From a virus (taxonomy: Duplodnaviria > Caudoviricetes): a DNA stretch of 64,000 nt. The stretch is from IMG/VR virus record IMGVR_UViG_3300025924_000001, positions 47,865 to 111,864 of that record. One strand, 5' to 3'. The notes beneath the pieces are model-generated. The model was not told the DNA's origin and made no database searches. It saw only the letters and a list, made by a program, of their open reading frames with translations. This document shows positions 2,806 through 32,697 of this stretch, piece by piece; positions within the stretch are counted from its first letter, which is position 1, and each line of letters starts with the position of its first letter. Position numbers and translations under genes: made by a program.

Positions 2806-5706
2806 CTACTTGAAACCGGTCATCTTCTTCAGCTCCCGCCACGCAACTTCCCGCTGCATCGGGTCGGGGTCGTTCCGCCACTGGTGGTGCAGTGCCTGGA
2901 ACACGGACTCCTGAGCGCGCTCCGCGCGGCTCACGGACGGCAGCACCTCCGGTGCCACCGCCTTGTTGATCTGGTCGAACGCGACGCCGCGGTAGGGACC
3001 CACCGGGTCCGGCTGCTCGGCGAGCGCCTCCAGCTTCTTGCGGGTCTTCTTGAGGTCCTTCCGAAGGTCGGCGACCTCGGCGTCTCGGGCCGCGTTGACG
3101 TCGGCGACGGCCTTCGTGATCATCTCCTGGACGGTCACGAGGTCGAGGGTGACGGCCTTGGTGACCTCGGTCGTGACGGTCTTCTCGGCCTCAACGACCT
3201 CGGTCGCCGCGGCCTCGACCCTCACCTTCTTGGGCTTGGCGGCCTTGGCCGCACCGGCACCGTGCGGTGCTGGGCCGCCGACCCCCACCGGCACCGGACG
3301 AGAGCCCGGCAGCGAGCCGCCGTAGGGGCTGCCGCTGGGCGCGGTTGGGCAGAGGTCGGGGAAGGTCTGCGCGATGTGGTCGTGCATGGCCAGCATGGCC
3401 TGCCGCGCGTTGTCCTTCATCGCGTTGGTGTAGTAGGTGCGGGTGGGGACGCCGGTCACCGACGGTGGGCTCACCGGTCGCATCGGGTTGCTGCCGCTCG
3501 CGGGTGTCTCGGAGGCGCGACCCGCGGTGAGGTAGCCGTGGTTGAACTGCGCCGCGGAGATCGACCCGAACGGGTTGGGCGCGGTGTTGGGGCCGCCGTG
3601 GCCCGGCGACGCGGCCTCGTGACCGGCCGTGACGAGCGGACGGTTGTAGGAGCGGCCGTTCATCGAGCCCGGGGCGGGGAAGGTGCCGGGACCGGGGTTC
3701 GCGTCGCGGAACTCCTTGTACAGCTCCGACTTCGCCTCGAGCAGGTAGCGCGGGTCGGTTCCCTTGAGGGTGACCACGTGCTGCCACAGGTCGTTCGCCT
3801 TGCGGGCCTGGTCGAGCGGCGCGGACGCGGCCATCTCGAAGGCCTTGCGCTGCCAGTGGTTCGGGTCGAGGCTGGACAGGTCGTAGCTGGGGTAGCTCTT
3901 CGCGACGTCGTCTGGGTGGAAGCACGGGCAGGTCAGGTCGTGCAGCACGCCGTAGTCCGCGGGAACGTTGAGCATCTTCAGCCGCATCGACGCCGAGCCC
4001 TCGTGGTCGCCGGGGAAGATGAGGTCCGCGGTCTTCACGCTCGAGTCGGGAACGGTGGGCAGCTTCGCGTCGTGCTCGAGGGCCTCGATCGCGGGGCCGT
4101 CCGGCTCGCGGTGCGCCGGCACCGGGTCGGCGTCCTCGGTCTCCTCGACGCCGTCGGTGGGCGTCGCCTTCTTCTCGGCCTTCACCTTCTTGCCCTTGTG
4201 GCTCGCCCGGATCTTGCCGCCGGTGGCCTCGTCGTCATCCCCACCGTCGCCGTTCTCACCGCCGGCGGCCTTGACCTTGCTGTCCGCCTCCGGCAGGTAG
4301 CCGGGGTGGGCCTTGCCGCAGGACGGGCAGAACTTCTCGCCCTTGTCGAGCTGGTAGCCGCAGCCGAGGCACGTGAAGTCGTGGTTCTTCTTGACCGCGA
4401 GCGCGCCCTTGAGCTTGCCGCCGCACTCGGGGCAGAAGTTGTGCTCGGCGTGCAGGTTCGCCCCACAGCCGGGGCACATGACCTTGTCCTTCTTCTCGAC
4501 GGTGACGACCTTCTCGACGGTCGGCTCGACGGCCTTCTCGCCGTCGTCGCACTTCTCCGTCTCGTTCTCGTCCTCGTCGTCGGCCTTGGCGCTGCCGGCG
4601 CCGCCGGTCCCGGCACCGGCGGTGCCGCCGCCGGCCTCACCCGCGCCGGCGCTGCCGCCGCTCGTGCCGCTGCCGCCACCGGTGGAGCCGGCCTTCGCCT
4701 CGTCGGGCTCCTCGTCCTTCGTGGCGTCCGGCTCGTCCATGGTCTTCGCCTCGGTGACGTCGTCCTCGACGGTGTCGACGTCGATCACCTTCTCGCTGTC
4801 GCTCATGCCGAGCTCCTTCTTCCAGCTCTCGGGGAGCCGGGCCACGAAGGCGGCACCCTTGCGTCGGGCGATGCGAATGATGCTGCTCTTCAGGTCCTCG
4901 GGCGACTTGTTGTCGTCGCCGGCGCGGCCGATCGAGGTCGCGGCGTCGTGCACGTCCTGAGGGGTGACGATGGGGAAGGAGCGGTCGGTGCCCGCGAAGT
5001 CACCGGCGGGGATCGCGTCGCGATCGGTGCCGCCACCCACGTTGGGGTCCACGTCGCGCTTCACGACGCCCTCGTGACCGGTGAGTGCCTTAGCGACGTC
5101 GGCCGGGGTGACGCGCTCACCCTCGTACGTGACGCCGCGCTTCACGACGATCTCGGTGACGTCGCCCAGCATCTTGCCCACGAACTCGGGGTCACCGTCG
5201 GCGCCGGCGGCCTTCACGAGCTGGAACTTCGAGTTGAAGTTGCTGCCGCGGTCGACGAGGCTGATCTCACTGATCTTGGTGAGGCCGTCGCGGCGGCCGC
5301 GGATGATGCCGTTCATGGCCTTGCCGGTGGGGTCCGGCACGATGTCCGGGTGCGTGATGCCCACCGAGTAGCAGGTCAGGACGCCCTTGCGAACGAGCTC
5401 CTTGGCCACGGGCTCCACGACGAGGGACTTGACCCAGTGCCCGTCGGGGGTCGCCTCCACCTCGAGGCCCCTGCCGGCCGGGTCCCGGCGAGCCTGGTGC
5501 TGCACCCGCACGTTGCCGCCGGTCTCGAGCCACTCGTGGATCGCCTTCGCGGACCAGTCCTGGTCGACGATCTGCAGGTCGCTGTCGACGGTGCCGTCGG
5601 TGGCCTTGCCGTAGACGATGAGGTCGCCGTCGGCCGTCTCCTCGGTCTTCTCGATGGGGAACGAGAAGTAGGTCAGCTCGCCGTCGGGGGTGAGGGTTGC
5701 GGCCAC
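2806..5706 (-). CDS. Prohead maturation protease/scaffold fusion with double zinc ribbon
   Basis: N-terminal HK97-like protease motifs (YGKAT...DSDLQIVD, NVRVQH, YSVG, EISLVDR); CPGCG/CPECG/CLGCG/CPSCG ribbons; acidic linker; C-terminal coiled coil; lies between portal and capsid. Confidence 0.8.
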   Translation of the reverse strand: MAATLTPDGELTYFSFPIEKTEETADGDLIVYGKATDGTVDSDLQIVDQDWSAKAIHEWLETGGNVRVQHQARRDPAGRGLEVEATPDGHWVKSLVVEPVAKELVRKGVLTCYSVGITHPDIVPDPTGKAMNGIIRGRRDGLTKISEISLVDRGSNFNSKFQLVKAAGADGDPEFVGKMLGDVTEIVVKRGVTYEGERVTPADVAKALTGHEGVVKRDVDPNVGGGTDRDAIPAGDFAGTDRSFPIVTPQDVHDAATSIGRAGDDNKSPEDLKSSIIRIARRKGAAFVARLPESWKKELGMSDSEKVIDVDTVEDDVTEAKTMDEPDATKDEEPDEAKAGSTGGGSGTSGGSAGAGEAGGGTAGAGTGGAGSAKADDEDENETEKCDDGEKAVEPTVEKVVTVEKKDKVMCPGCGANLHAEHNFCPECGGKLKGALAVKKNHDFTCLGCGYQLDKGEKFCPSCGKAHPGYLPEADSKVKAAGGENGDGGDDDEATGGKIRASHKGKKVKAEKKATPTDGVEETEDADPVPAHREPDGPAIEALEHDAKLPTVPDSSVKTADLIFPGDHEGSASMRLKMLNVPADYGVLHDLTCPCFHPDDVAKSYPSYDLSSLDPNHWQRKAFEMAASAPLDQARKANDLWQHVVTLKGTDPRYLLEAKSELYKEFRDANPGPGTFPAPGSMNGRSYNRPLVTAGHEAASPGHGGPNTAPNPFGSISAAQFNHGYLTAGRASETPASGSNPMRPVSPPSVTGVPTRTYYTNAMKDNARQAMLAMHDHIAQTFPDLCPTAPSGSPYGGSLPGSRPVPVGVGGPAPHGAGAAKAAKPKKVRVEAAATEVVEAEKTVTTEVTKAVTLDLVTVQEMITKAVADVNAARDAEVADLRKDLKKTRKKLEALAEQPDPVGPYRGVAFDQINKAVAPEVLPSVSRAERAQESVFQALHHQWRNDPDPMQREVAWRELKKMTGFK

Positions 5707-5721
5707 ACGGCTTCCTTTCCG

Positions 5722-8700
5722 TCAGTCCGTCGTCTTGTTGAGGTGATCGCTGCCGTGGTGAATCTGGAACGAGTGCGCCTCGTCCCACGGCCCGACCACG
5801 GAGTGGACGGTGCCGACGTACGCGTTGAGGGGCTTGCCGAGGCGCTGGGCGGCCAGGGCGCGGTGGTGACCGTCGATCACCTTGAGCTTGGGGTCACCGG
5901 GGGTGTCGACGAGGATCGCGGGGTGCAGGGTTTCGCCGGCCCTCAGTCGCTCCACGAAGCGGTCGACGGCGGCGGCCTCGTGGTGAGCCGCCCACCGAGC
6001 CTCGTTGCTGAAGTCGAGCAGGCTCGTGGGGACGTCGGTGGGGCCAACCCACCTCGCGTCGTCAACCCACGCGTAGCCCTCAGCGCTGAAGTTCCGGCTC
6101 ATCAAGGCCGCGACCTCGTCGGCGGTCGCCGATCGCGTCCCATCCAGGTAGGTGTCTCGACCCAGCGCGCTGAGCACGAGCTGCAGGTCGTCACGGAGCT
6201 CGGCGCGAACCGAGGGGTTGTCGACCAGGTGAGCCGGGTCCCACCACGCGAGCGCCTCAACCTGGTCCCCGTCGGGGTCGTCGGGGTTGGTGACGCGGTC
6301 GCGGCCGTCGAAGATCGGCACGTCGGCCTCGGACGCAACCTCGTAGACGAAGCCCAGCCAGCGACCGCTCTCCGTTCCCCAACCGGGAACGAACCGCCCG
6401 ACGGGGAGGACGCAGCCGGTCTCCTCCTGCCACTCCCGAACCGCGGCGCTGCGCGGCTGCTCACCGGGTTCCAGGCAGCCGCCGGGAAACTCCCACGTGC
6501 CGGCGGCCCGGTCGGGCGGCTCAGTTCCGACGAGGTCGGACACGCTCTGGTCACCGTAGGGCACGTCGTGGCTGATGGAGCCGTCGGCGTGGGACCACCA
6601 GTCACCGCTGTCCAGCCCCCACGCGAGCGGCAGACCGCAGGGGCAGTGCGTGGGACCAACCGCGCGCTGCAGCATGAGCACGCGACCGGTGTCGGCGGCG
6701 CGCACCGCGAGCCCGGCGGCGACGCAGGCGCCCTTGGTCGCGGTGCGACCCTCCCACCGGTCGCACACGTCGATCAGGTCGATCGAGCCCCACACGAGGT
6801 CGCACTCGTGGGTGTCGAGGTGGAACATCACGCAGGTGCCGCAGGATCGAGCGCGGCTCTCAGCCGGCCGGTAGTGAACCGACTCCTTGGACACCTTGAC
6901 GCGCTTGCCGAGATCGCTCACGCTCGGCGCGCGGCCCCGGTCGTTCACGTCACCGGGAACGTCGCTGATCGCGGCCTGGCCGGCGCCGTGGCCACCCTGC
7001 GGCCAGTAGCCAGTGGGTCGCGCGTCGACGTCGGTTTGGTGGCCCTGGGTCAGGGGTACCCGGTCGTCGCGACCGCCGGAGGGGTGATGCGCTTGAGATC
7101 GGTCGGAACCATCGTAGAAGCCACCCATGTAGCCGTTGGGCGGCTGTGAGGTCCACCGTGGGGGCTCACCCCCGGCCGTGCCTCCCGGGACCCCACCGGG
7201 CACCTCGGTGCCGTCTCCCAGGTGCCGGACCGGGGATCGACCGCCGCCGCCGGCCGCGTTGAGCGGCACGGCCGAGTCGATCCAGCTCTCCTGACCGTTG
7301 AGGCTGACCACGCGGCGGGTCGCCTTGACCACGCGGATCGCGTCGTCGATCTCCAGGCCCTCAGCCAGGTGCTGAGCGATGCGAGCGAGCGCCGCCTGGT
7401 TGACGTTCCGCGGCACCCACGTGCTGACCTGCCGGCCCTTCTTGACGTGACGGCTCAAGGCCTCGAGCTCGCTGCTCACGGCCTTCGCGAGGGACGCCGC
7501 GTCCGCCTTCTTTGCGGGCGCGGCGGCCTGCGGCTTGGCCGCGGAGCGCGGCGGCGTCTTCTGGTCGCCGGTCGCCGAGGCGTGACCCGGCGTCTCGGGG
7601 TGCTGCGGTGCCGCTGCCTGGGTCGGAACGTCGGCCTGGCCGGTGCTCTGGGTCTGGGCGGTGCCGGTCGCGGTGACCGGCAGCTCCGGCTTCAGGCCCG
7701 ACAGGGAGAGCTGGCCGGGGTCGCCGACACCGGGCTCGTCGGTCGTGCCAGCGGTGACCGCACCGAACGGCACGGGACCGTTCTTGCTGAGGAAGACGGG
7801 GCCGCTCGTCTCCGGTAGGCCCCACGGTTGCAGGTTGAGCTTGTCGCGGGCCTCGTCGACGCTGCGCAGCCCGTTCTCGACCTGCTTGATGAGCAGGTCG
7901 GTGATGAGGGCCTCGTCCTCCTCCGCCTCGAGGCCCTCGAAGACGAACTGCATGTCGTCCTGGCCACAGACGTACTCGAGGATGTTGTTGATGATGTCCG
8001 CGATGAACATGAGCGTCGGCTTGGTTGCCTTGCGCTCGCCCACGTTCTCGGCCATCTTCGCCATCTGGTGGGACGCGCCGGGCGACATCGACGTGCTGAC
8101 CTTGGGGGCGATGCCCAGCTCCATGGGCATGATGTCGAACGCCATGCAGACCTGGGTCATGACGATCTCGTCGAACGCGTCGGCGAGCTGGACGCCGCGC
8201 TGCGGCTCCACCTTCGTCCCCGGCGGCAGAACAATGATCTTATGGTGCCAGGCGGGGTCGCCGGCGAACGCGTTGAGCGCGTCCTGCAGCTCCCGAATCT
8301 GGTTCGGCGTCATGTTCTCGTCGCCGGGCGACATGTAGACGGCCGGGACGGTGCCCTCACGGAAGTAGTCGAGCTGGTAGCCCTGCTTCTGCAGCCCGGA
8401 CAGAACGGGGATCATCGCGCGTTCGATGGGCGGGAAGCCGTACGGCGTCCACCGGCGAGGAACCATCGGCACATACAGCAGCTGGTCGCCCCGGAACTGA
8501 CCGACCTCGCTGCCGCGGAGGCCGCCATCCTGGATGTCCATGTCCGTCAGCATTTTGATGAAATCGCTGCGGGGGACGCCGTAGAGGTACTGCTGGTAGG
8601 CCGGCGCCGGCGGAGCCGGGTAGCCGCCGTGCATGTCGTAGAGCGGGCGGATGGTCGGGCCGCTGATCAGGTTCAGGCTGTCGAGGTCGCTGCCGAGCAG

Positions 8701-12447: not shown

Positions 12448-13946
12448 GCGGCCTCCTCGATGCCGGCCCCGCAGTGCGGGCACTTGTCGCGGGCGACGCC
12501 GCCGCTGGTCTTGGTGAACGGCTTCTCGCACCGGTGGCACTTGACGACGCCGTAGGCGTCGAGCCACGAGCCGCCGATGAGGTCCTTGAGGTCGTAGAAC
12601 GCCCAGACGCAGGCGTCCATTCGGTCCGGGGACTCGGGGTCACCCGGCGCCCAGGTACACATCTCGTCCTCGAGCTGGGGGAAGATCCCCACGTGGTGGA
12701 TGCGGTGCTGCTCGTAGAGGGCGGAGACGGGCTCGGCGCGGGTGTTCTTGCCGCGGCTCGCCCGCACCGATCGGAACGACACGTTGTTGTCGACGGCGCG
12801 AAGGACCGTGCCGATGTAGTCGCCGCCGTTGTTGACCTCGGCGACGATCCGGTCGGCCTCGAACTCGTGGTAGGCGTCCACGGCGCGGCGCATGCACTGC
12901 TGTGGGGTGCCGCGCATCGTGTAGTCGGCGAGGACGTAGCCGTTTCCCTCGCGGTCCGCGGCCGCGACGACGATGCCGGTGAGGTCGCTGGTCTCGCCGC
13001 TCGTGACGGAGGGGTCGACGCCGACGACGACGCGCACCAGGTCGAGGTTCTCGCGGGCCTCAACGGGTAGACGGTCGTTCTCGAGCCACTCGCGCTTCCA
13101 CAGGGCGTTGTCCCGGTTCTCGAGGATCTCGGCGTCGAGCTCCTGCAGGCCGAGCTGGGTGCCGAGCATCGGGGCGATGACGTTGGCCTTGTAGCTGTCG
13201 CTGAGGTTCTCGAGGTTGTCGACGGTGCGGCCGCGGGTGACGATGACGTTGTCGCGCTGCATGAGCCCCGGCGTCGCGAGCTTCGTGTCGGAGACACGGA
13301 GCAGGGCCACGGGGCGGGGCGTGGTGGCGACGACGATCCGGCTCACGTAGTCGAGCGGCCAGTCGGGGCGGCGGGGAAGGCGGGTCGCGATGGTCAGGTT
13401 GGACCACGTGGTGTCGGCCGCGGTGCCCTTGTGGGCGTCGGCCCAGAAGCAGGACTCGTCGCCCCACCCGAAGTGAAACTGCGGACCGCGGAGCTGCCAG
13501 GGCTTCTCCGCGGAGTACGTGAAGAACTTGCTGCCGTTCTCGAGGTAGAGCTCACCGAGGGAGCGGTTCCACGCGCCGTTGATCTTGCCGCCGCGGAGCT
13601 CGGTCTGCTTGAAGCAGTTGAGCAGCCCCGAGTCGCCCTCGATCATGGTGTCGCGGGTGTCGCCGATGGTGCGGGCGACGAGCGCGATGCGGCAGCCGGG
13701 GTACCGCCGGGCCTTCTCCGCCATGAGCTCGGCGGCGGTGCGGGACTTGCCCCAGCCACGGCCGGCGAGGATCAGCCAGACGAACCAGTTTCCCTCGGGC
13801 TCGAGCTGGTCGGGGCGGGCGGTCTCGCGCCAGGTGCGCTTGTGACCGTCACCGTTGTCGATGTCGGTCTTCTTCTGCTGCAGCTCGCGGAGGCGACGCA
13901 GCTTGTCGAGCTTGACCTCCAGGAGAGTGTCGACCACGGCGCTCAC
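12444..13946 (-). CDS. terL: Terminase large subunit
   Basis: Walker A AGRGWGKS, LRGPQF, Walker B WGDE, ATTP, RNase H-like VGVDP and SPDRMDA; extra C-terminal CHRC/CPHC zinc finger. Confidence 0.93.
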   Translation of the reverse strand: MSAVVDTLLEVKLDKLRRLRELQQKKTDIDNGDGHKRTWRETARPDQLEPEGNWFVWLILAGRGWGKSRTAAELMAEKARRYPGCRIALVARTIGDTRDTMIEGDSGLLNCFKQTELRGGKINGAWNRSLGELYLENGSKFFTYSAEKPWQLRGPQFHFGWGDESCFWADAHKGTAADTTWSNLTIATRLPRRPDWPLDYVSRIVVATTPRPVALLRVSDTKLATPGLMQRDNVIVTRGRTVDNLENLSDSYKANVIAPMLGTQLGLQELDAEILENRDNALWKREWLENDRLPVEARENLDLVRVVVGVDPSVTSGETSDLTGIVVAAADREGNGYVLADYTMRGTPQQCMRRAVDAYHEFEADRIVAEVNNGGDYIGTVLRAVDNNVSFRSVRASRGKNTRAEPVSALYEQHRIHHVGIFPQLEDEMCTWAPGDPESPDRMDACVWAFYDLKDLIGGSWLDAYGVVKCHRCEKPFTKTSGGVARDKCPHCGAGIEEAA

Positions 13947-25644: not shown

Positions 25645-26163
25645 GGGAGGTTGACGTGCCTGATCAGCTGCGATTCGTGTCGGTGCAGCCGAACACGTGG
25701 ACGGTGGTGACGGAGGTGGGCGTCGAGGTGATGCACGACAGCTCCCAGATCGAGAACGCCCACGTGCTCTACGACTCCCTTCACCTTCCCACGACGCTGA
25801 CCCGAGAGGGGTACCGAACGCCCTCCTGGTACGTCCGGGCGGTGGGGTCGTGAGCCCCTGGAAGTGGTGCCTGCGGCGAATGAAGCGGATCGCGGCAGCT
25901 CTTCGTGACGAGCGAGCGCACAACCGGCACCTCGCGCGAACCAACGAGAAGCTGACCAGTCAGAACGATACCCTCCGGTTGAAGCTGATCGACCTGGGGA
26001 TCAACCCCAACGAGGTTGACGACCCCGACGACCGAGAGAGACCGATCTAGACACCTACCACGACGAGGGGCGGGCCCGAGCGGCCCGCCCCTCGTTGTAT
26101 CTCTGCAAGTTAATGTGATATTGTAAACTCCTATCGGAACGGAAGCGAGGAAGGAGAGAACCC

Positions 26164-27408
26164 GTGAACCTGTCCGACCTGGAGGCCATCCTGGGCGTCC
26201 TCAACCCGTGGCTGATCGGCCTCGCGTACGGCGCGCTGGGACTGCTCGCGCTGTGGTTCATCCGCTCCACGGTGAGGTCGCTCGCGGCGTGGACGCACCG
26301 TGCGCGCTCGGTCGAGACCACGGTCGCCGGCACCCGGGTGTTCTACGTCGCGGCCCTCGCCGGCATGCTCGTGTCCCTGAACACGAGCTGGAACTACTTC
26401 GGCTCGGTGCTCGGCGTGATTGACGTCGTGGAGCGCGGCGTCATGTTCTTCGTGCTCGAGCTCGCGCAGGTTGCCTGCGGCTGGGGGATGCGTTCCTCCA
26501 TCCGCGAGCACGGCAAGCCCGGCCCGGCTCGACTGATCGCGTGGTTCCTCTGCGCGATCTCCGCGTACATGGCGTGGAGCCTGAGCGGCGTCTGGGTCGG
26601 CGTCGCGCGAGTGGTGCTCGGACCCGTCCTGAGCCTCGTGATGCTTCACCTCGCCCTGGGCATCGAGATCCGCAGCCTGCGGGTCAAGACCGACTCAGTC
26701 TGGGTCCGCGTCGCTCGAGAGCTGCGGGAGCGCCTGCTCGCGTTCCTGGGGTTGAGCGACGAGGAGCGTGACGCGAGGACGATCGCTCGTCAGCGAGCCC
26801 TCCTGAAGGCGACCCGCATCCGCATGACCGGTGACGGCTCGGAGCGGTCGCAGCGACGCTTCATCGAGCAGCTCGCGCGCGCGGACGTCGCGAACGACGC
26901 CGAGGCGCTCGAGAGCTTCGTCAACTCGATGAAGCTCGCGGCGAACGCGAGTGCGGTGTTTGACCTGCGGTACCCGATGCCATTTCAGGTGACACCTGAT
27001 GGTGCCAACGAGGTGGACGTGGCACCTGACACTGACACTGACACTGACACCGAGGAAGTGACACCCACCGAGGTTGACACCGAGGAAGTGGCACCTGACA
27101 CCTGGCTATCGGGTGACACTGACACTGACACTGACACTGACACTGACACTGACACTGACACTGACACTGACACTGACACTGACACTGACACTGACACTGA
27201 CACTGACACTGGCAAAGTGCCGACGGCACCGGTGTCACTGGCACCTCGAAGTGGCAGGGCTCAGGCTGAGGTCGACACCATCCTCGAGCTGATTCGAGAC
27301 CAGGGCGTGGACGCGATCTCCATCGAGGTCGTCAAGACGAAGCTTGGTCTCAAGCACTCAACCGCGGCGCGTCGCCTTCGCGCCGCGAGGGATCAGCTGG
27401 CATCCTGA
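26164..27408 (+). CDS. SpdB/DUF2637-like membrane protein with (DT)n repeat and C-terminal HTH
   Basis: 4-5 TM helices ending GPVLSLVMLHLALGIE, low-complexity linker, HTH (VKTKLGLKHSTAARRLRAAR); architecture of actinomycete plasmid spread proteins. Confidence 0.6.
   Translation: MNLSDLEAILGVLNPWLIGLAYGALGLLALWFIRSTVRSLAAWTHRARSVETTVAGTRVFYVAALAGMLVSLNTSWNYFGSVLGVIDVVERGVMFFVLELAQVACGWGMRSSIREHGKPGPARLIAWFLCAISAYMAWSLSGVWVGVARVVLGPVLSLVMLHLALGIEIRSLRVKTDSVWVRVARELRERLLAFLGLSDEERDARTIARQRALLKATRIRMTGDGSERSQRRFIEQLARADVANDAEALESFVNSMKLAANASAVFDLRYPMPFQVTPDGANEVDVAPDTDTDTDTEEVTPTEVDTEEVAPDTWLSGDTDTDTDTDTDTDTDTDTDTDTDTDTDTDTDTGKVPTAPVSLAPRSGRAQAEVDTILELIRDQGVDAISIEVVKTKLGLKHSTAARRLRAARDQLAS
27115..27210 (+). 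repeat. (GACACT)16 perfect tandem repeat
   Basis: 16 copies counted; about 4 more at 27028-27050. Confidence 0.95.
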
Positions 27409-27413
27409 CACCG

Positions 27414-27448
27414 GGTGCCACCTGCCACGATCAGTGGCAGGTGGCACC
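27414..27448. terminator. 15-bp hairpin built from GTGCCA/TGGCAC motifs
   Basis: ggtgccacctgccac / gtggcaggtggcacc. Confidence 0.6.
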
Positions 27449-27519
27449 TCAGCGCGTGGCACCGACGACGTGACTTCCACCTTCATCAGTTGATGTGATA
27501 TGGTGGTACCACCGAGGAG

Positions 27520-29088
27520 GTGATGACGGTGAGCGAGGAGCTCGAGAACGACGAGACGAGGGTGTTCGCGACCGCGGCCCCGGTTGAGGCGTCTGACCTG
27601 GTCGAGGACTCGACCGCCTCAATCAAGGAGCCTGCGACCGCGTCCCAAGAGACCGGGATCGACAGGCCACCGGGTCCCGCGACGACCGTCAAGGCTCGGT
27701 CGAGCGCCGGTCGCCCCACGTGGCACCTGTCCCTGACGCTGGGCCTGGTGATCGCCCTGGTCGGCGGCATCCTGCTGTGGATGCAGTCACCGGAGCTGGC
27801 CCTGCTGGTCGCCGGCGGCCTGATCATCCTGGTTGGTCTCGCGCTCGCCCTGTGGTACCTCTTCGGTTCCGGTACGCTGAGCCGTCGGGGTGCCACGGCT
27901 CGGCGAGATGCCAACCGCGGTGGCACGCCGGGTGCCAACCGCGGTGGCAGTGCCAGTGACACCGGTCGAGGTAGTGCCAACCGCCGTGGCAGTGCCAACC
28001 GTGAGGATGGCACCAGCCGACGGCGACGCGGTGACACCGGTGATCGCGGTGACACCCGATCGCGGCGACCGGGACGCGGTGACACCGACCGTGGTGCCAC
28101 GGGTGCCAACCGGCGTGCCAATCGAGATGGCACTACCAACCGGGGTGCCAACGGCAATCGGAACGGTGCCAACTCAGGTGCCAACGGTAATCGGAACGGC
28201 GGTGGCAAACCGGCGGCACCGGGTGCCACGAGGCCGAGCCAGCCGGCCGGTGGCAAGCCGCCGACAGACCGGAAGCCGAACGCGAACGGCGGTCGGCAAC
28301 CCCTCGTCGGCGACCAGGCGGCGAGTCGGCCCGACCGTCTCACGGCGGCTGACCGGCGAGCTCAGCGGCGGCGAGCCGCCGGGTACCCGCAGTCCAGGGT
28401 CATCACGTGCGGCGGTCGGCCTCCGCTGGCCGCCGTGAAGACGACCAAGAAGACGGATGAGACGGCCGACGCTGATAAGAAGCGGGTAAGGTTGAAGCCT
28501 CTGCGGTGGCGCAGTCGGTCCGGTAAGCTGCCGGTCCCGAAGCCGCCGCGAGCGACGACGACGAGCGCCCCACCCAAGGCGGCACCGGTGAGACCGACGA
28601 CGACGACGAAGCCCCAGGTCAAGCCCGACGAGAGGGTTGAGTGGCCGAACGTGGACCACGACCAGGTGGCGAGCCAGCCGCCGCCGCGGATCACCGTCCC
28701 CCGTCGAGCGGTGAGGCTTGAGCCGCGGTACCACGGTCGCGCGGGTGAGCCGAACTGGCCGACGACCGACCCCGACCGACCGACACCGACACCGAGCATT
28801 CCCGACCAACGGAACAGGAGAGGTACCGTGAGCAACCCCGATCTGCTGACCCGGGCCGCCCGGGAGCAGCACTTCAGCGACTCCGCGACCGCCGCGGTGA
28901 GCGCCGCACAGGCGAAGGACACCCAGGCGAACCAGCTACTGGCCCTGGCCGGCGAGCTGGATGGCGTGGAGGGCATGGAGCGGGTTCAGGAGGAGCACTA
29001 CCGGGCCGCGGCCGCGGCCGCGCACGACGCGGAGGTTCGCCGGGGGAAGGCCGCGATCTACGGCTTCCTGAGCGAAAACCCCGCCTGA
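27520..29088 (+). CDS. Transfer-associated membrane protein, low complexity, with in-frame internal start at 28828
   Basis: 2 TM helices, G-A-N repeats, Pro/Arg-rich region; AGGAGAGG SD before GTG 28828 giving an 86-aa Ala-rich helical product. Confidence 0.55.
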   Translation: MMTVSEELENDETRVFATAAPVEASDLVEDSTASIKEPATASQETGIDRPPGPATTVKARSSAGRPTWHLSLTLGLVIALVGGILLWMQSPELALLVAGGLIILVGLALALWYLFGSGTLSRRGATARRDANRGGTPGANRGGSASDTGRGSANRRGSANREDGTSRRRRGDTGDRGDTRSRRPGRGDTDRGATGANRRANRDGTTNRGANGNRNGANSGANGNRNGGGKPAAPGATRPSQPAGGKPPTDRKPNANGGRQPLVGDQAASRPDRLTAADRRAQRRRAAGYPQSRVITCGGRPPLAAVKTTKKTDETADADKKRVRLKPLRWRSRSGKLPVPKPPRATTTSAPPKAAPVRPTTTTKPQVKPDERVEWPNVDHDQVASQPPPRITVPRRAVRLEPRYHGRAGEPNWPTTDPDRPTPTPSIPDQRNRRGTVSNPDLLTRAAREQHFSDSATAAVSAAQAKDTQANQLLALAGELDGVEGMERVQEEHYRAAAAAAHDAEVRRGKAAIYGFLSENPA

Positions 29089-29163
29089 TTTCACCCTCGC
29101 TCGACCCCCGACCAGGTAGGTCGGGGGTCGAGCCCGTTCCGGAACGAGGAAGAGGAACCGATC

Positions 29164-31350
29164 GTGGTCCCCCACAAGGTGTTCTTGCCGGTCGCGGGCT
29201 CCCTGCTGACGCTCGCCCTGAGCCTCGGCCTGCTCGTGACGCGGGTCTCGACGCCGCTCGCGGTCACGGGCACCGTGGTCGCGACCGGGCTCGCCGTGCT
29301 GCTGGGCGAGCGTCTGGTTCACGTCGCGGACTCGCTGTCGCACCTCACCCTGGACGCGAAGAGCCTCGCGTTTCGCCTGGTAGCGGTCGCGGTGGTGGGC
29401 GATGGGACCGTCGCGGTAACCCTCGAGATCGTGGGCTTGACCGAGCTGCCCCGCGCCCTGCTGTGGCAGCTCGGCCTCACCGCGGCGCAGGTTGTCGTCG
29501 CGGTGATCGCGGACGAGTACCTGTCGCGGGTACGGCCGCGGCTACGGCAGGTGTCGTGGGAGCGCCGACAGGTTCGAGAGCGCGACCAGGCGGTCGCGCG
29601 ACGGGACGCGGAGATCGAGGTGGGCGCCGGCGAGGCCCTGGTCAAGCGCGAGTCGGTGACCCCGGCTCCCACCGAGAGCCACGACATCCGGGTCATGCGC
29701 CTGGCGCTCAAGAAGGTGAAGCTCGGCTGGCTGGTGATCCTGGACCGGCGGCCCCTGAGCGACGCTCGGGGCCTCTTCGGCATCCAGTTCGACGTCCAGA
29801 TCACGGCCGAGGCGATGAGCCACAAGGGGCGGCGAACGCTGCCGACGGAGGCGGCGGAGCCGATCGCCGTGGCCCTCTCGGAGCTGCTCAACCAGGTGAT
29901 CGAGAGGAGGTGGGTGGGGATCCAGCGACTTCCCCGGGCCGGTGGGTACGCGATCACCGTGACCACGCAGGACGTGATGGCCCGGGTCTACCCCTTCGAG
30001 GACGAGCTGGAATGGGCGAGCGTTCAGGACCTGGTCCTGATCGGGTACGGCCTGGACGCTCAGCCGGTTTACCTGCTGCTGCGGCAGCACGGCCAGTTCC
30101 TGGGGAAGAGCCGGTCGGGCAAGTCCTCGCTGATCAACTGCGTGCTCGCGTACCTGACCCGTTGCCGCGACGCCGTGGTCTGGATCTGCGGCACCGAGAA
30201 GCTCTACGACATGCTGGCCGGCTGGCTGGAGATCTACCTCGACGAGGACGAGGAGATGCCCTTCGACTGGGTCATGGCCGGCCCGCAGGACACCGCGGAG
30301 TGCCTCGCGGCCCTGATGCGCGTGGCTCGGTACCGACAGTCGCTGCGGCTCAGCCAGCGGCTGAACCTGCCGGACATCATCTGCGTTCTCGACGAGGCCT
30401 CGTTCGCGCTGCGCAACACGACGATCACGGCCGAGTTCGACGGCCGTGACCTGACGATGTCGACGCTCTGCGGCATGATCACGCAGGGCGCGGGCTCGGC
30501 GGGCTGCTGGCTCGAGTACTCCACGCAGCGGGACACGAACGACCAGCTCGGTCCCGCCGGCGGCGACATCCAGGCGCAGACGGGGTTTACCGCGGCGTTC
30601 GGCAGCCAGGACAACCTGTCCCTGGGGCGGCAGCTCGGGGACTTCAAGCTGCCGCCGCCGGCGCACAAGGGTGAGTTCTACCTGAAGAACGACGCCGCGG
30701 AGGCTCCCTACCCGGTGCTGACGAAGGGCCGCTACCTGCAGGAGGATGACCCGAGCAAGCCTCGGCTGCACGACGGGTTGACGGTGAGCTCGGTGTCGTG
30801 GTCGCGTCGATCGTTCAAGGTCCACCTCGACGAGGGGTCGGCGCGCGCCGCGGGGGAGCTCTACGTGGCGCGGCCGACGCGGGTCACGGAGCGGTTCCTG
30901 GACTACCTCGCGAGCCCCACGTCCGTGGCTGCGCCGCTGGACATCGTGGGTGCCCGTCGGGCCGTGGCCCCCGCGCCGGCGCTCGACGCGGTGGACGCGG
31001 ACGCCGCTGACCTCGCGCAACGAATGGGGTTCGACTTCGCGTCCCTTCCCGGCGCGCAGAAGGAGGCCTACCGGGAGGTGGTACGAGAGCTGCAGACGGC
31101 CACGGAGCCGCGAGCGGACCCCGCTCAGGCAGCTTCCAGTGGGCCGCCGCGGTCCGGTCGGGCGGAGCAGGTGGAGTGGGTGCTGCGCGAGGCGGGGACG
31201 CCGCTCACGTCGCGGGAGATCCTCGACGAGCTCCGGTCCGTCGGCGTCGAGGTCAAGAGCGAGGGGTCGGTGCACAACCTGCTTGGTAGGCTCGTGAGTG
31301 ACGGGGTCATCGTGAAGGTGAACGGTCGCTTCCAGCTCCCGGACTGGTAA
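29164..31350 (+). CDS. TraB-like FtsK/SpoIIIE DNA translocase
   Basis: N-terminal TM helices; Walker A GKSRSGKS; Walker B ICVLDE; STQR; C-terminal winged helix (LTSREILDEL...SVHNLLGRL). Confidence 0.8.
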   Translation: MVPHKVFLPVAGSLLTLALSLGLLVTRVSTPLAVTGTVVATGLAVLLGERLVHVADSLSHLTLDAKSLAFRLVAVAVVGDGTVAVTLEIVGLTELPRALLWQLGLTAAQVVVAVIADEYLSRVRPRLRQVSWERRQVRERDQAVARRDAEIEVGAGEALVKRESVTPAPTESHDIRVMRLALKKVKLGWLVILDRRPLSDARGLFGIQFDVQITAEAMSHKGRRTLPTEAAEPIAVALSELLNQVIERRWVGIQRLPRAGGYAITVTTQDVMARVYPFEDELEWASVQDLVLIGYGLDAQPVYLLLRQHGQFLGKSRSGKSSLINCVLAYLTRCRDAVVWICGTEKLYDMLAGWLEIYLDEDEEMPFDWVMAGPQDTAECLAALMRVARYRQSLRLSQRLNLPDIICVLDEASFALRNTTITAEFDGRDLTMSTLCGMITQGAGSAGCWLEYSTQRDTNDQLGPAGGDIQAQTGFTAAFGSQDNLSLGRQLGDFKLPPPAHKGEFYLKNDAAEAPYPVLTKGRYLQEDDPSKPRLHDGLTVSSVSWSRRSFKVHLDEGSARAAGELYVARPTRVTERFLDYLASPTSVAAPLDIVGARRAVAPAPALDAVDADAADLAQRMGFDFASLPGAQKEAYREVVRELQTATEPRADPAQAASSGPPRSGRAEQVEWVLREAGTPLTSREILDELRSVGVEVKSEGSVHNLLGRLVSDGVIVKVNGRFQLPDW

Positions 31351-31360
31351 CCGTCAGTTA

Positions 31361-31468
31361 CGGCTTCATGTTTCATATGAAGCCGAGGGGTACCCCCGAG
31401 ACGGCCTTCTCGCCAGGTCGGAGGCTTCACTTCGGCTTCACCTTCACATGTGAATTCACATGTGAAGT
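31361..31468. repeat. clt-like repeat cluster downstream of the traB-like gene
   Basis: GGCTTCA x3 plus TGAAGCC; TTCATATGAA; two adjacent TTCACATGTGAA palindromes (31443-31466). Confidence 0.6.
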
Positions 31469-31503
31469 CACGCAGCGTGACAACGAGACGAGAGGAGAGG
31501 CCC

Positions 31504-32274
31504 GTGTGCCTCGGACGAACCCACGCGGTGGGTGGGGTGACGCTGGGCCTCACGGCGGCCGACCTGGTTGGGAACGTGAGCCTGGTCCAGGCGCTCGCCG
31601 GCGCGGCCGTGGCCGCCGGTGCGGCCCTGCTCAACGACCTCGACACGCCGTCGAGCACCGTGAGCCACGCGCTGGGGCGGTCCACCCAGCGCCTAGCGAG
31701 CGGTGTTCAGCGGCTGTCTCGCGTCGTTTTCGAGCTGACCGCGACGCCGGCGGACCACCGGTACGCGTCACCCACGCATCGGGCCCTGACGCACACCCTC
31801 CTCTTCGCCGTCGCACTGGGGGTTGGGACCTGGGCGACGGCGCGGTGGGTCCCCCTCGGGGCCGGCCTGGTCGCCCTCGTGGTCGCCGTGCCGGCGCTGC
31901 GCCTGGTGGACCGTCGGCTGCGCGGGGTGAGCCTGCTCCTGACGGCGCTGGGGGTCGCGGCGCTCGTGACCGCGGCCGCGCCGAGCGCGGTCACGGTGGG
32001 GGTCGCGGTGGGGGCTGGGGCGCTCAGCCACGACCTGCTCGACGGGTGCACCACGATGGGCGTCCCCCTGCTGTGGCCGCTCAAGCTGCGGGGCATGCGG
32101 TGGCGGCGGCTGGGGCTGCCGCGGTTCCTGCGGTTCCACACCGGAGGCCCGGTCGAGCCGTGGGTGCTGTGGCTGCTCGTCGTCATCACCGTGGGGCTCA
32201 CGCCCCCAGTCCTCAGCTGGCTCGAGGTTGCCGTCACACAGCTCATCAATTTAGCTGTTTACATTTGGGGCTGA
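31504..32274 (+). CDS. Membrane-bound metal-dependent hydrolase (YdjM-like)
   Basis: GRTH, LL.DLD.P, HRALTHT, SH.LLD.CT..GVPLLWP motifs; multiple TMs. Confidence 0.85.
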   Translation: MCLGRTHAVGGVTLGLTAADLVGNVSLVQALAGAAVAAGAALLNDLDTPSSTVSHALGRSTQRLASGVQRLSRVVFELTATPADHRYASPTHRALTHTLLFAVALGVGTWATARWVPLGAGLVALVVAVPALRLVDRRLRGVSLLLTALGVAALVTAAAPSAVTVGVAVGAGALSHDLLDGCTTMGVPLLWPLKLRGMRWRRLGLPRFLRFHTGGPVEPWVLWLLVVITVGLTPPVLSWLEVAVTQLINLAVYIWG

Positions 32275-32697
32275 GGATGGTATGGTTTTCTCAGCGGCTG
32301 GAAAACCGGCCAGATGAGAGGAAGACCAACCGTGGACAAGATCATCCAGAACCTGGGCCCCGTCATCAGCATCGAGATCACCTGGGGAAGCGAGGACAAG
32401 ATGCCGATGGTGGAGGGAGTTCTGATCGTCAAGACCGAGACCGAGGTGGAGAGCGGCAACGGGTGGGCCACCTACCGGGTCACCGCGCCGCTCGTGAACC
32501 TCGTGCACTGGGTCGCTGAGCACTACAACATGCTGGACAAGACGACGGCTCACAACCTGGCTGACGTCTTCATCGACGCCGAGTTCGCGAAGGTCACCAC
32601 CGCGTTCGGCGGGTGAGAGCCGGCACCTGGAGCCGCCTAAGGAGCGGCTCCAGGTGCCGAACTACCAGGAACGACCGACCGAGGGAGAGGATCAAGC

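Follow-up and report, generated by a model that had tools for sequence, protein, structure and literature searches.

Why would a tailed phage carry genes that resemble the conjugation apparatus of actinomycete plasmids? The question is raised by a 64-kb stretch of viral DNA (hereafter the window), which corresponds to bases 47865-111864 of a single 111,864-bp contig, IMG/VR record IMGVR_UViG_3300025924_000001. Three consecutive genes of the window, here termed g1, g2 and g3, encode a polytopic membrane protein with a helix-turn-helix (HTH) domain, a polybasic protein with transmembrane (TM) segments, and a membrane-anchored FtsK-fold ATPase with a winged HTH (wHTH), and a cluster of repeats follows g3. 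An earlier note, made from the letters of this DNA, had described these architectures together with the repeat cluster, and all are present at the coordinates given in Table 1. The note interpreted them as an actinomycete-plasmid-type conjugation module with Spd-like proteins, TraB and a clt-like site, carried by a phage-plasmid. The block appears to be best explained as a pZL12-type actinomycete Tra module that is now a stable part of a large tailed phage. Its most likely role, to which we assign a probability of roughly 0.5, would be the virion-independent pumping of phage double-stranded DNA (dsDNA) across hyphal septa or envelopes.

Kinship of g1 and g3 with plasmid genes

The view that this is an actinomycete-plasmid-type transfer module is borne out by profile-level homologues of g1 and g3 that stand in the same order on the Streptomyces plasmid-phage pZL12. 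The pZL12 record (GQ919031) contains 73c (a membrane protein of 398 aa), 72c (766 aa) and 71c (FtsK/SpoIIIE-like, 725 aa), located downstream of a GntR regulator. The g1 family aligns colinearly with pZL12.73c (hhalign, 97.7%, E 2.5e-12), and hmmsearch yields 79 bits over the full length. The g3 family aligns with pZL12.71c, likewise colinearly, over 417 columns that include both the motor and the wHTH (hhalign, 95.6%, E 1.1e-8). Gene order and orientation are the same in both genomes, running from a membrane protein of ~400 aa through a TM basic protein to an ATPase of ~725 aa with a wHTH, and in pZL12/phage ZL12, as here, the putative transfer locus lies within a virion-encoding genome. The abstract on pZL12 by Zhong et al. 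2010 (J Bacteriol 192:3747) reportedly names a traA-traC locus, and we infer that pZL12.71c-73c constitute the transfer locus of this plasmid. The two systems differ in other respects. pZL12 is a 90-kb circular plasmid with repA, parAB and proven transfer, whereas the phage genome measures 112 kb, has terminal repeats and its own replisome, and gives no match to ParA or integrase. Moreover, the middle genes have no detectable homology, and no repeat element follows the ATPase gene of pZL12.

Other relatives also link the module to plasmids. The homologue of g3 on a Streptomyces anulatus phage-plasmid, which has a single match in pZL12, is accompanied by a GntR regulator, NUDIX and kilB genes and lies next to terminase and capsid genes. 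Prauserella, Pseudonocardia and Mycobacterium have non-phage plasmids that carry relatives of g1 (43-57% identity), and g1 relatives on such plasmids sit beside conjugative coupling ATPases. One of these, the 14.9-kb Prauserella plasmid pPcorDSM45821a (L052), carries a g1-family protein at 12521-13741 and a coupling protein at 5233-7083. The latter is TrwB/TraG-type and not FtsK-like, and therefore the g1 family partners with more than one kind of translocase.

The AlphaFold2 (AF2) model of g3 (predicted local distance difference test score, pLDDT, of 84.7) comprises TM helices at residues 4-122, a P-loop motor at 173-590 and a wHTH at 665-728. There is a single motor domain with a single Walker A motif (GKSRSGKS) and a Walker B motif (VLDEAS). 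This is the build of TraB-type proteins, in which a TM domain, an FtsK-fold motor with Walker A and B motifs, and a C-terminal wHTH are joined in one polypeptide. A Foldseek comparison of the model with the PDB ranks FtsK motor domains first (E ~1e-14), followed by the pCW3 coupling protein TcpA, EccC and HerA. At the sequence level, g3 has no Pfam or NCBIfam match, PHROGs offers only weak matches to 'FtsK/SpoIIIE-like' families, and PDB searches with g3 and the family profile return nothing significant (FtsK, E 0.67). PF01580 (FtsK_SpoIIIE), the operational TraB criterion, has no match at E<=0.1 in g3, in 36 family members or in the six-frame translated genome. In contrast, pIJ101 Tra scores 38.8 bits against PF01580, and this protein reaches 1.9 bits against the g3 family profile, i.e. 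no sequence relation. The name TraB, taken in its strict sense, is thus not sustained for g3.

A profile search of 1.84 billion representatives recovered 854 clusters (50% identity) at E<=1e-3. Close relatives of g3 that lack Pfam domains number 45 and reside on contigs of 60-128 kb. PF01580 is carried by 11 of 25 more distant relatives, which argues, in agreement with the predicted fold, that the g3 family is a divergent branch of FtsK/SpoIIIE. Against the family profile, the highest scores quoted here belong to proteins of phages and plasmids: 173 bits for the Actinoalloteichus phage-plasmid pGBA129-24a, 91 bits for gp41 of Saccharomonospora phage PIS 136, 68 bits for the S. anulatus phage-plasmid protein, 35 bits for Tra of Nocardiopsis plasmid pSQ10 and 33 bits for pZL12.71c. 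Chromosomal FtsK of Amycolatopsis and Kutzneria attains 8-9 bits, and EccC ~0 bits.

In a motor-domain tree (quick maximum likelihood, with support from the Shimodaira-Hasegawa-like approximate likelihood ratio test, SH-aLRT), the g3 family forms a clade (support 100) that is sister to pGBA129-24a (96) and then to the PIS 136 clade (94), while FtsK and EccC occupy separate supported clades. The base of the tree fails to place the pair of pZL12.71c and pSQ10 Tra (joined with support 99), or the long branch of pIJ101 TraB, relative to the g3 family. Of the phylogenetic comparison with TraB, FtsK and EccC that the earlier note had proposed, the separation from FtsK and EccC therefore stands, such that g3 does not group with non-conjugative FtsK families; a grouping with TraB is not shown, as the base lacks support.

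The FtsK motor fold of g3 raises the possibility that the ATPase is an FtsK/SffA mimic acting at sporulation or vegetative septa, where it would bring phage DNA into spores or disturb host segregation and development. The hosts are probably mycelial and sporulating, with relatives pointing to the order Pseudonocardiales, and host development has been linked in the literature to phage genes of the FtsK-like and WhiB-like kinds (PMC13587820). Nevertheless, we regard such mimicry as unlikely, given the low scores of chromosomal FtsK, its separate position in the tree and the presence of partners, g1 and g2, of plasmid-transfer type. Mechanistically the proposal overlaps with virion-independent pumping, both being forms of cross-septal pumping. 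FtsK/SpoIIIE proteins of bacterial chromosomes share the motor fold with g3, and FtsK, like g3, starts with TM segments and ends in a wHTH; EccC differs in having three P-loop domains, compared with one in g3.

Parallels in architecture are also found in the TraB/clt/Spd systems of Streptomyces plasmids (pSVH1, pIJ101 and pWTY27; PMC4447253, PMC3583192). These systems likewise combine TM segments, an FtsK-type motor and a wHTH in one protein, include genes for small membrane partners and have a cluster of repeats and inverted repeats at the 3′ end of tra. They differ from the phage module in that no GntR (TraR/KorA) gene stands beside the latter. FtsK-like translocases are also phage-borne in cultured actinophages, including PIS 136 (gp41 and gp39), Streptomyces phages Jay2Jay and Hiyaa, and Thermobifida phage P1312. 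PIS 136 gp41 is the best viral structural match of g3, and the S. anulatus relative is matched by 92 Streptomyces phage records. However, the FtsK-like proteins of cultured actinophages have at most 29% identity to g3, over a quarter of the protein, and a megablast search of the block against cultured phages gave no match. Papers on actinophage FtsK-like genes suggest, vaguely, a role in replication or host development, and we found no description in which these genes are linked to one of g1 type and to a repeat element.

Some relatives have a second, shorter FtsK-like ATPase just 3′ of the first. In PIS 136 (L021, 8155-11863), gp39 is 46% identical to the gp41 motor, and two Amycolatopsis loci, L016 (13113-13229) and L017 (13053-13214), hold a short second match to g3 residues 319-368. 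Separately, the C-terminal winged helix of g3 is matched 9-12 times in tandem by proteins of ~700-1000 aa (P0258, P0261, P0263 and P0294) that consist of wHTH arrays.

In the AF2 model of g1, four TM helices at the N terminus lead into a helical domain on the cytoplasmic side. A disordered acidic (Asp-Thr)n linker (residues 280-361) connects this domain to a C-terminal three-helix HTH (residues 364-413, pLDDT ~96). Four TM helices and an HTH, encoded beside a translocase, are the build of SpdB2/DUF2637 proteins. The nearest named Atlas clusters by language-model features are DUF2637 (0.93) and a cluster carrying HTH_SpdB_C (0.85), and fold matches in BFVD comprise phiC31 gp25 and phage DUF2637 proteins (probability 0.97). 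We take phiC31 gp25 to be the putative SpdB2 homologue of that phage. The DUF2637 hidden Markov model (HMM; PF10935) matches neither g1 nor 35 family members nor the genome, and it is also negative on pZL12 and four plasmids. No relation between the g1 family and pIJ101 SpdB is detected by hhalign, and there is no similarity to SpdA or KilB either. The designation "Spd-like" therefore does not hold as a statement of homology to pIJ101 SpdA, SpdB or KilB, and the resemblance of g1 to DUF2637/SpdB-type proteins, which lies at the level of language-model features and predicted fold, is a lead and not proof of homology.

Pfam, NCBIfam and PADLOC scans return nothing for g1, g2 or g3, except for NCBIfam matches of g1 to staphylococcal SD-repeat adhesins (MSCRAMM, Clf/Sdr). 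We rejected these matches as spurious, since they reflect only the (DT)n repeat. A tblastn search with g1 against phages gave no match. The (GACACT)n run that encodes the linker, at 27003-27233, is the strongest tandem repeat of the window.

The g2 protein has two TM segments at ~67-116, followed by an Arg/Gly-rich disordered stretch of ~200 residues with an isoelectric point (pI) of 12 and by a conserved C-terminal domain. Although the gene failed a filter based on GC content at third codon positions (GC3), it has four homologues at 46-71% identity and is therefore a real gene. Its family has no detectable homology to pZL12.72c or to the 680-aa protein of the S. anulatus plasmid. Nonetheless, whether in the window, in pZL12, in the S. 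anulatus phage-plasmid or in pSQ10, the middle gene encodes a TM-anchored protein with a long basic region (pI 10-11.7) and a membrane anchor near residues 50-100. In position and composition, g2 would thus be an analogue of pZL12.72c.

A structured element behind the ATPase gene

The cluster that begins just after the g3 stop codon (31361-31468) contains four copies of GGCTTCA, a hairpin with a 10-bp stem and a tandem palindrome, (TTCACATGTGAA)x2. With a GC content of 54%, it falls in the lowest 0.9% of the 120-bp windows of the genome; the sequence TCACATGTGA is confined to it genome-wide, and its DNA fold departs from that of shuffled sequence with z = -5.5. In 8 of 10 family loci (the window and seven others), the ATPase stop codon is directly followed by an element whose architecture is conserved and whose sequence is variable. 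The order is a short tandem-repeat arm, a GC-rich inner hairpin and an inverted arm. The repeats are of the type (TCACTCAC)n in L006, L007 and L019, of the type (CAAAC)n in L008, L014 and L015 (in L008 seen for the first arm only), and TCA-CATG/CATATG-TGA palindromes in the window and L004. A related CGGTAG array is present in pGBA129-24a, which lies outside the ten loci. Fold z-scores range from -4.1 to -7.7 in six of eight folded elements, those of L014 and pGBA129-24a being weak and L008 having been left out. In L006, L007, L015 and L019, the element is the densest cluster of 7-mer repeats in the ~20-kb locus.

In related phages and plasmids, inverted-repeat arms of 22-27 bp built from tandem 4-bp units, (CACT)n or (CAAA)n, surround the GC-rich inner hairpin. 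The elements are located at L019:12368-12485, L007:11912-12027, L006:12145-12245, L015:11793-11888, L014:12205-12310 and L004:12180-12275. The gene on their 3′ side varies, being a YdjM gene, a conserved two-TM gene or an opposite-strand gene, and the element stays with the ATPase gene. The two-TM gene, found 3′ of the ATPase gene in distant loci (L016:12331-12993, L019:12479-13111, L007:12018-12665, L014:12289-12897 and L015:11908-12465), encodes a conserved protein of ~200 aa whose two TM segments lie around residues 100-125; the window and L004 have ydjM in its place.

Known clt loci likewise occupy the 3′ end of tra genes. They are made up of direct and inverted repeats that vary (PMC3583192) and to which the winged helix of TraB/TraA binds (PMC3583192, PMC4447253). 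In the g3 family, the presumed recognition helix reads AVYNLL in three (CACT)n loci and SV(H/R)NLL in the two palindrome loci, and L006, a (CACT)n/AVYNLL locus, is otherwise closest to the window. Helix and repeat type change together, a pattern that fits a protein-site pair. We rejected a dispersed, strand-skewed motif resembling the FtsK-orienting polar sequences (KOPS), because the repeat words are concentrated at one site; in this the single-copy candidate site of g3 differs from the dispersed KOPS recognized by chromosomal FtsK.

Alternatively, the cluster might be a structured g3 terminator combined with the promoter or operator of ydjM, and not a loading site, an arrangement that we consider quite possible though short of probable. 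The palindromes occupy an operator-like position, 40-60 bp before the likely start of ydjM (31504). Dimeric repressors typically have operators of the tandem 12-bp palindrome kind, and the inner GC-rich hairpins are terminator-like. In addition, the L006 element lies between the ATPase gene and an opposite-strand gene, only plain terminators occur at the corresponding site of pZL12 and the S. anulatus plasmid, and L016 is devoid of an element. However, a terminator or operator function does not readily account for the retention of the element at the ATPase 3′ end despite differing downstream genes, for arms of 22-27 bp made of tandem 4-bp units, which are unusual in terminators, or for the shift of repeat type with the wHTH recognition helix, and the position matches that of known clt loci.

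Genome context and spread of the module

The contig repeats its first 128 bases at its end and thus closes on itself, and IMG/VR records it as viral, notes direct terminal repeats and gives a CheckV completeness of 100%. It represents a tailed phage of high GC content (66-76%) that encodes a large terminase, a portal fused to Nudix and ParB-like domains, a tail fibre, a tape measure protein and an endolysin. Its replication, recombination and nucleotide genes include those for DNA polymerase I, helicases, a primase, an exonuclease, a Sak4-type annealing protein and thymidylate synthase. When the complete sequence was searched in six frames with HMMs, no match was obtained for tyrosine integrase (PF00589), serine recombinase (PF07508) or ParA-type ATPase (PF13614, PF01656); plasmid Rep was not searched for specifically. 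The observation that the window lacks an integrase is thereby confirmed and extended to the entire genome. Since neither integrase nor ParA is matched, the genome looks self-replicating and non-temperate. The term "phage-plasmid" is not supported for this genome, in view of these results, of the terminal repeats and of the phage's own polymerase I, primase and helicases.

Putative expression signals accompany the module (Table 1). The 17-bp motif AGTT(A/G)ATGTGATAT(T/G)GT, which had been noticed upstream of the first two genes, occurs in exactly two copies (26108 and 27488) and nowhere else in the 112-kb genome, compared with 0.02 expected, and is retained with 2 mismatches at the equivalent sites of the relative L004. 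As had also been noticed, g3 is preceded by the phage motif GGAACGAGGAA (at 29141). This is the phage's general leader, with 24 matches (<=1 mismatch) in the window versus 1.0 expected. A consensus promoter/terminator scan did not detect the module's motifs, and an Rfam scan of 25800-32600 gave no match.

Table 1. Features of the module and its flanks, in window coordinates.
Feature	Position	Strand	Basis
GC-rich hairpin with 17-bp arms and 5-nt loop, terminator-like, ahead of the module	26060..26098	+	inverted repeat, 94% complementary
Module-specific promoter- or operator-like motif AGTTAATGTGATATTGT before g1	26108..26124	+	one of two exact genome copies
g1, 414 aa, polytopic membrane protein with C-terminal HTH	26164..27408	+	AF2, hhalign, hmmsearch
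Second motif copy AGTTGATGTGATATGGT before g2	27488..27504	+	exact genome match, position kept in L004
g2, 522 aa, TM and polybasic protein	27520..29088	+	alignment, four homologues, pI/TM comparison
GC-rich hairpin with 14-bp stem, 3′ of g2	29100..29132	+	read from sequence
Phage-wide leader or ribosome-binding-site motif GGAACGAGGAA before g3	29141..29151	+	24 window matches vs 1.0 expected
g3, 728 aa, membrane-anchored FtsK-fold ATPase with C-terminal winged helix	29164..31350	+	AF2, Foldseek, hhalign, profile scores, tree
AT-richer repeat/palindrome cluster, candidate clt-like loading site or terminator plus operator	31361..31468	.	repeats, fold, relatives
YdjM-type membrane metal-dependent hydrolase gene	31504..32274	+	PF04307 3e-18; phrog_20744 3e-32

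The three-gene module is syntenic in three related phage contigs, with 45-62% protein identity in relatives of 104-111 kb. More distant loci follow the same plan, with a polytopic membrane protein, often a tiny two-TM protein, a low-complexity gene and then the TM-ATPase. The complete large relatives G004 (105 kb) and G005 (128 kb) are also without ParA and integrase, whereas smaller relatives and plasmids carry such genes. By this comparison, the module would serve temperate phage-plasmids as well as apparently non-temperate phages.

These relatives also bear on the possibility that the block entered recently as a piece of a plasmid, or arose by chimeric assembly, and has no role in the phage. 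Apart from the occurrence of relatives on plasmids, the data speak against this idea, which is largely refuted and which we hold to be very improbable. Gene order and position are shared by three phage genomes whose proteins are 56-62% identical, the GC content of the block (66-71%) matches that of the genome, a phage-type leader is present, all reading frames are intact, and the self-closing contig with its 128-bp overlap is 100% complete. The check on conservation in related phages that the earlier note had called for thus came out in favor of its view that the module is native to the phage lineage and uses the phage's own leader motif, and a separate element or misassembly, which it had named as a refuting outcome, was not encountered.

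The interval described in the earlier note, which ends at 32274, also contains the YdjM-type gene, which was unmentioned there. Its open reading frame opens at 31450; the likely start is the GTG at 31504, as judged from GTGTGCCTCGGG, which is conserved in L004. A YdjM-type (PF04307) gene is located within ~8 kb of the ATPase gene in seven related loci, with varying position and strand (for example, window 31504-32274, L004 12307-13038, L015 12885-13592 and L020 2540-3307). The module may include the YdjM-type gene as a loosely linked member, although this is uncertain.

A putative route for capsid-free spread

How might such a module serve a phage that appears to be non-temperate? We propose that g3 would form a hexameric membrane pore, with its winged helix docking on replicated phage DNA at the repeat cluster next to g3, and that ATP hydrolysis would drive double-stranded phage DNA over a hyphal cross-wall or into a touching hypha. 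The g1 and g2 proteins would act as Spd proteins do in the transfer of plasmids, by making up or anchoring the channel and keeping hold of the DNA. Hexamer formation, site binding, the direction and substrate of pumping and the biological pay-off are all inferred. Because no integration or partition genes were matched, the pay-off would be that an ongoing infection spreads without capsids through the compartments of a mycelium, and not plasmid-like carriage; this is the simplest use of the module in apparently non-temperate phages. More tentatively, a virulent-looking phage may push its replicating genomes across cross-walls or into neighboring hyphae, with the repeat element and the winged helix acting as a fast-evolving lock and key specific for its own DNA. 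We place this fuller version somewhat below even odds.

The membrane location of all three proteins is also compatible with a different task, in which the module would handle DNA at the envelope during infection, either by pulling in the rest of the 112-kb genome once a first part has been injected or by mediating superinfection exclusion, in which DNA of competing phages or plasmids is kept out. The promoter or leader signals that each gene possesses, the virulent-looking genome without ParA or integrase matches, and the common occurrence of FtsK-like genes in lytic Streptomyces phages all accord with such a task. It appears doubtful, however, in light of the homology of the module to a plasmid transfer locus. 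Moreover, the predicted sequence-specific wHTH is encoded next to a repeat site present in single copy, which suggests that loading takes place on DNA of the phage itself, and no match to known defence or exclusion families was obtained. We also know of no precedent for FtsK-driven genome entry.

Several points weigh against virion-independent pumping of phage DNA by a pZL12-type module. The PF01580 match that defines TraB operationally is missing, pIJ101 Tra is unrelated in sequence, the base of the tree does not settle where g3 stands relative to pZL12/pSQ10 Tra and to pIJ101 TraB, g2 is not a detectable homologue of pZL12.72c, and the pZL12 transfer locus itself is a presumed one. With respect to the repeat element, the co-change of helix and repeat amounts to about one evolutionary event, the palindromes of the window occupy an operator-like position, and pZL12, the S. 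anulatus plasmid and L016 have no comparable element. Finally, FtsK-like genes are found in many lytic Streptomyces phages without a known transfer phenotype, and the phage host is uncultured.

The findings have precedents in pZL12, a proven plasmid-phage with a transfer locus, in the FtsK-like translocases of cultured Streptomyces phages, PIS 136 and Thermobifida phage P1312, and in the SpdB2 homologues of phiC31. What appears to be new is that profiles connect g1 as well as g3 with pZL12 genes, that a 112-kb genome without detected lysogeny or partition genes has the full module, and that the ATPase gene is followed by a structured element whose repeat type seems to change in step with the recognition helix.

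Phages are assumed to travel between cells as particles only, and the cross-walls that divide filamentous actinomycetes confine infection. If the proposed role is correct, a phage-owned dsDNA pump would provide a second, capsid-free route of spreading, one that escapes receptor-based resistance and blurs the distinction between phage and conjugative element. The family is sizeable, with its 854 clusters, and its members are known from phage-plasmids as well as from large genomes devoid of lysogeny genes. Cultured relatives, among them PIS 136, pZL12-like plasmids and Streptomyces phages with FtsK-like genes, make the idea directly testable. The pairing of repeat and helix also suggests that portable pairs of loading site and pump might be obtained for actinomycetes that are hard to transform.

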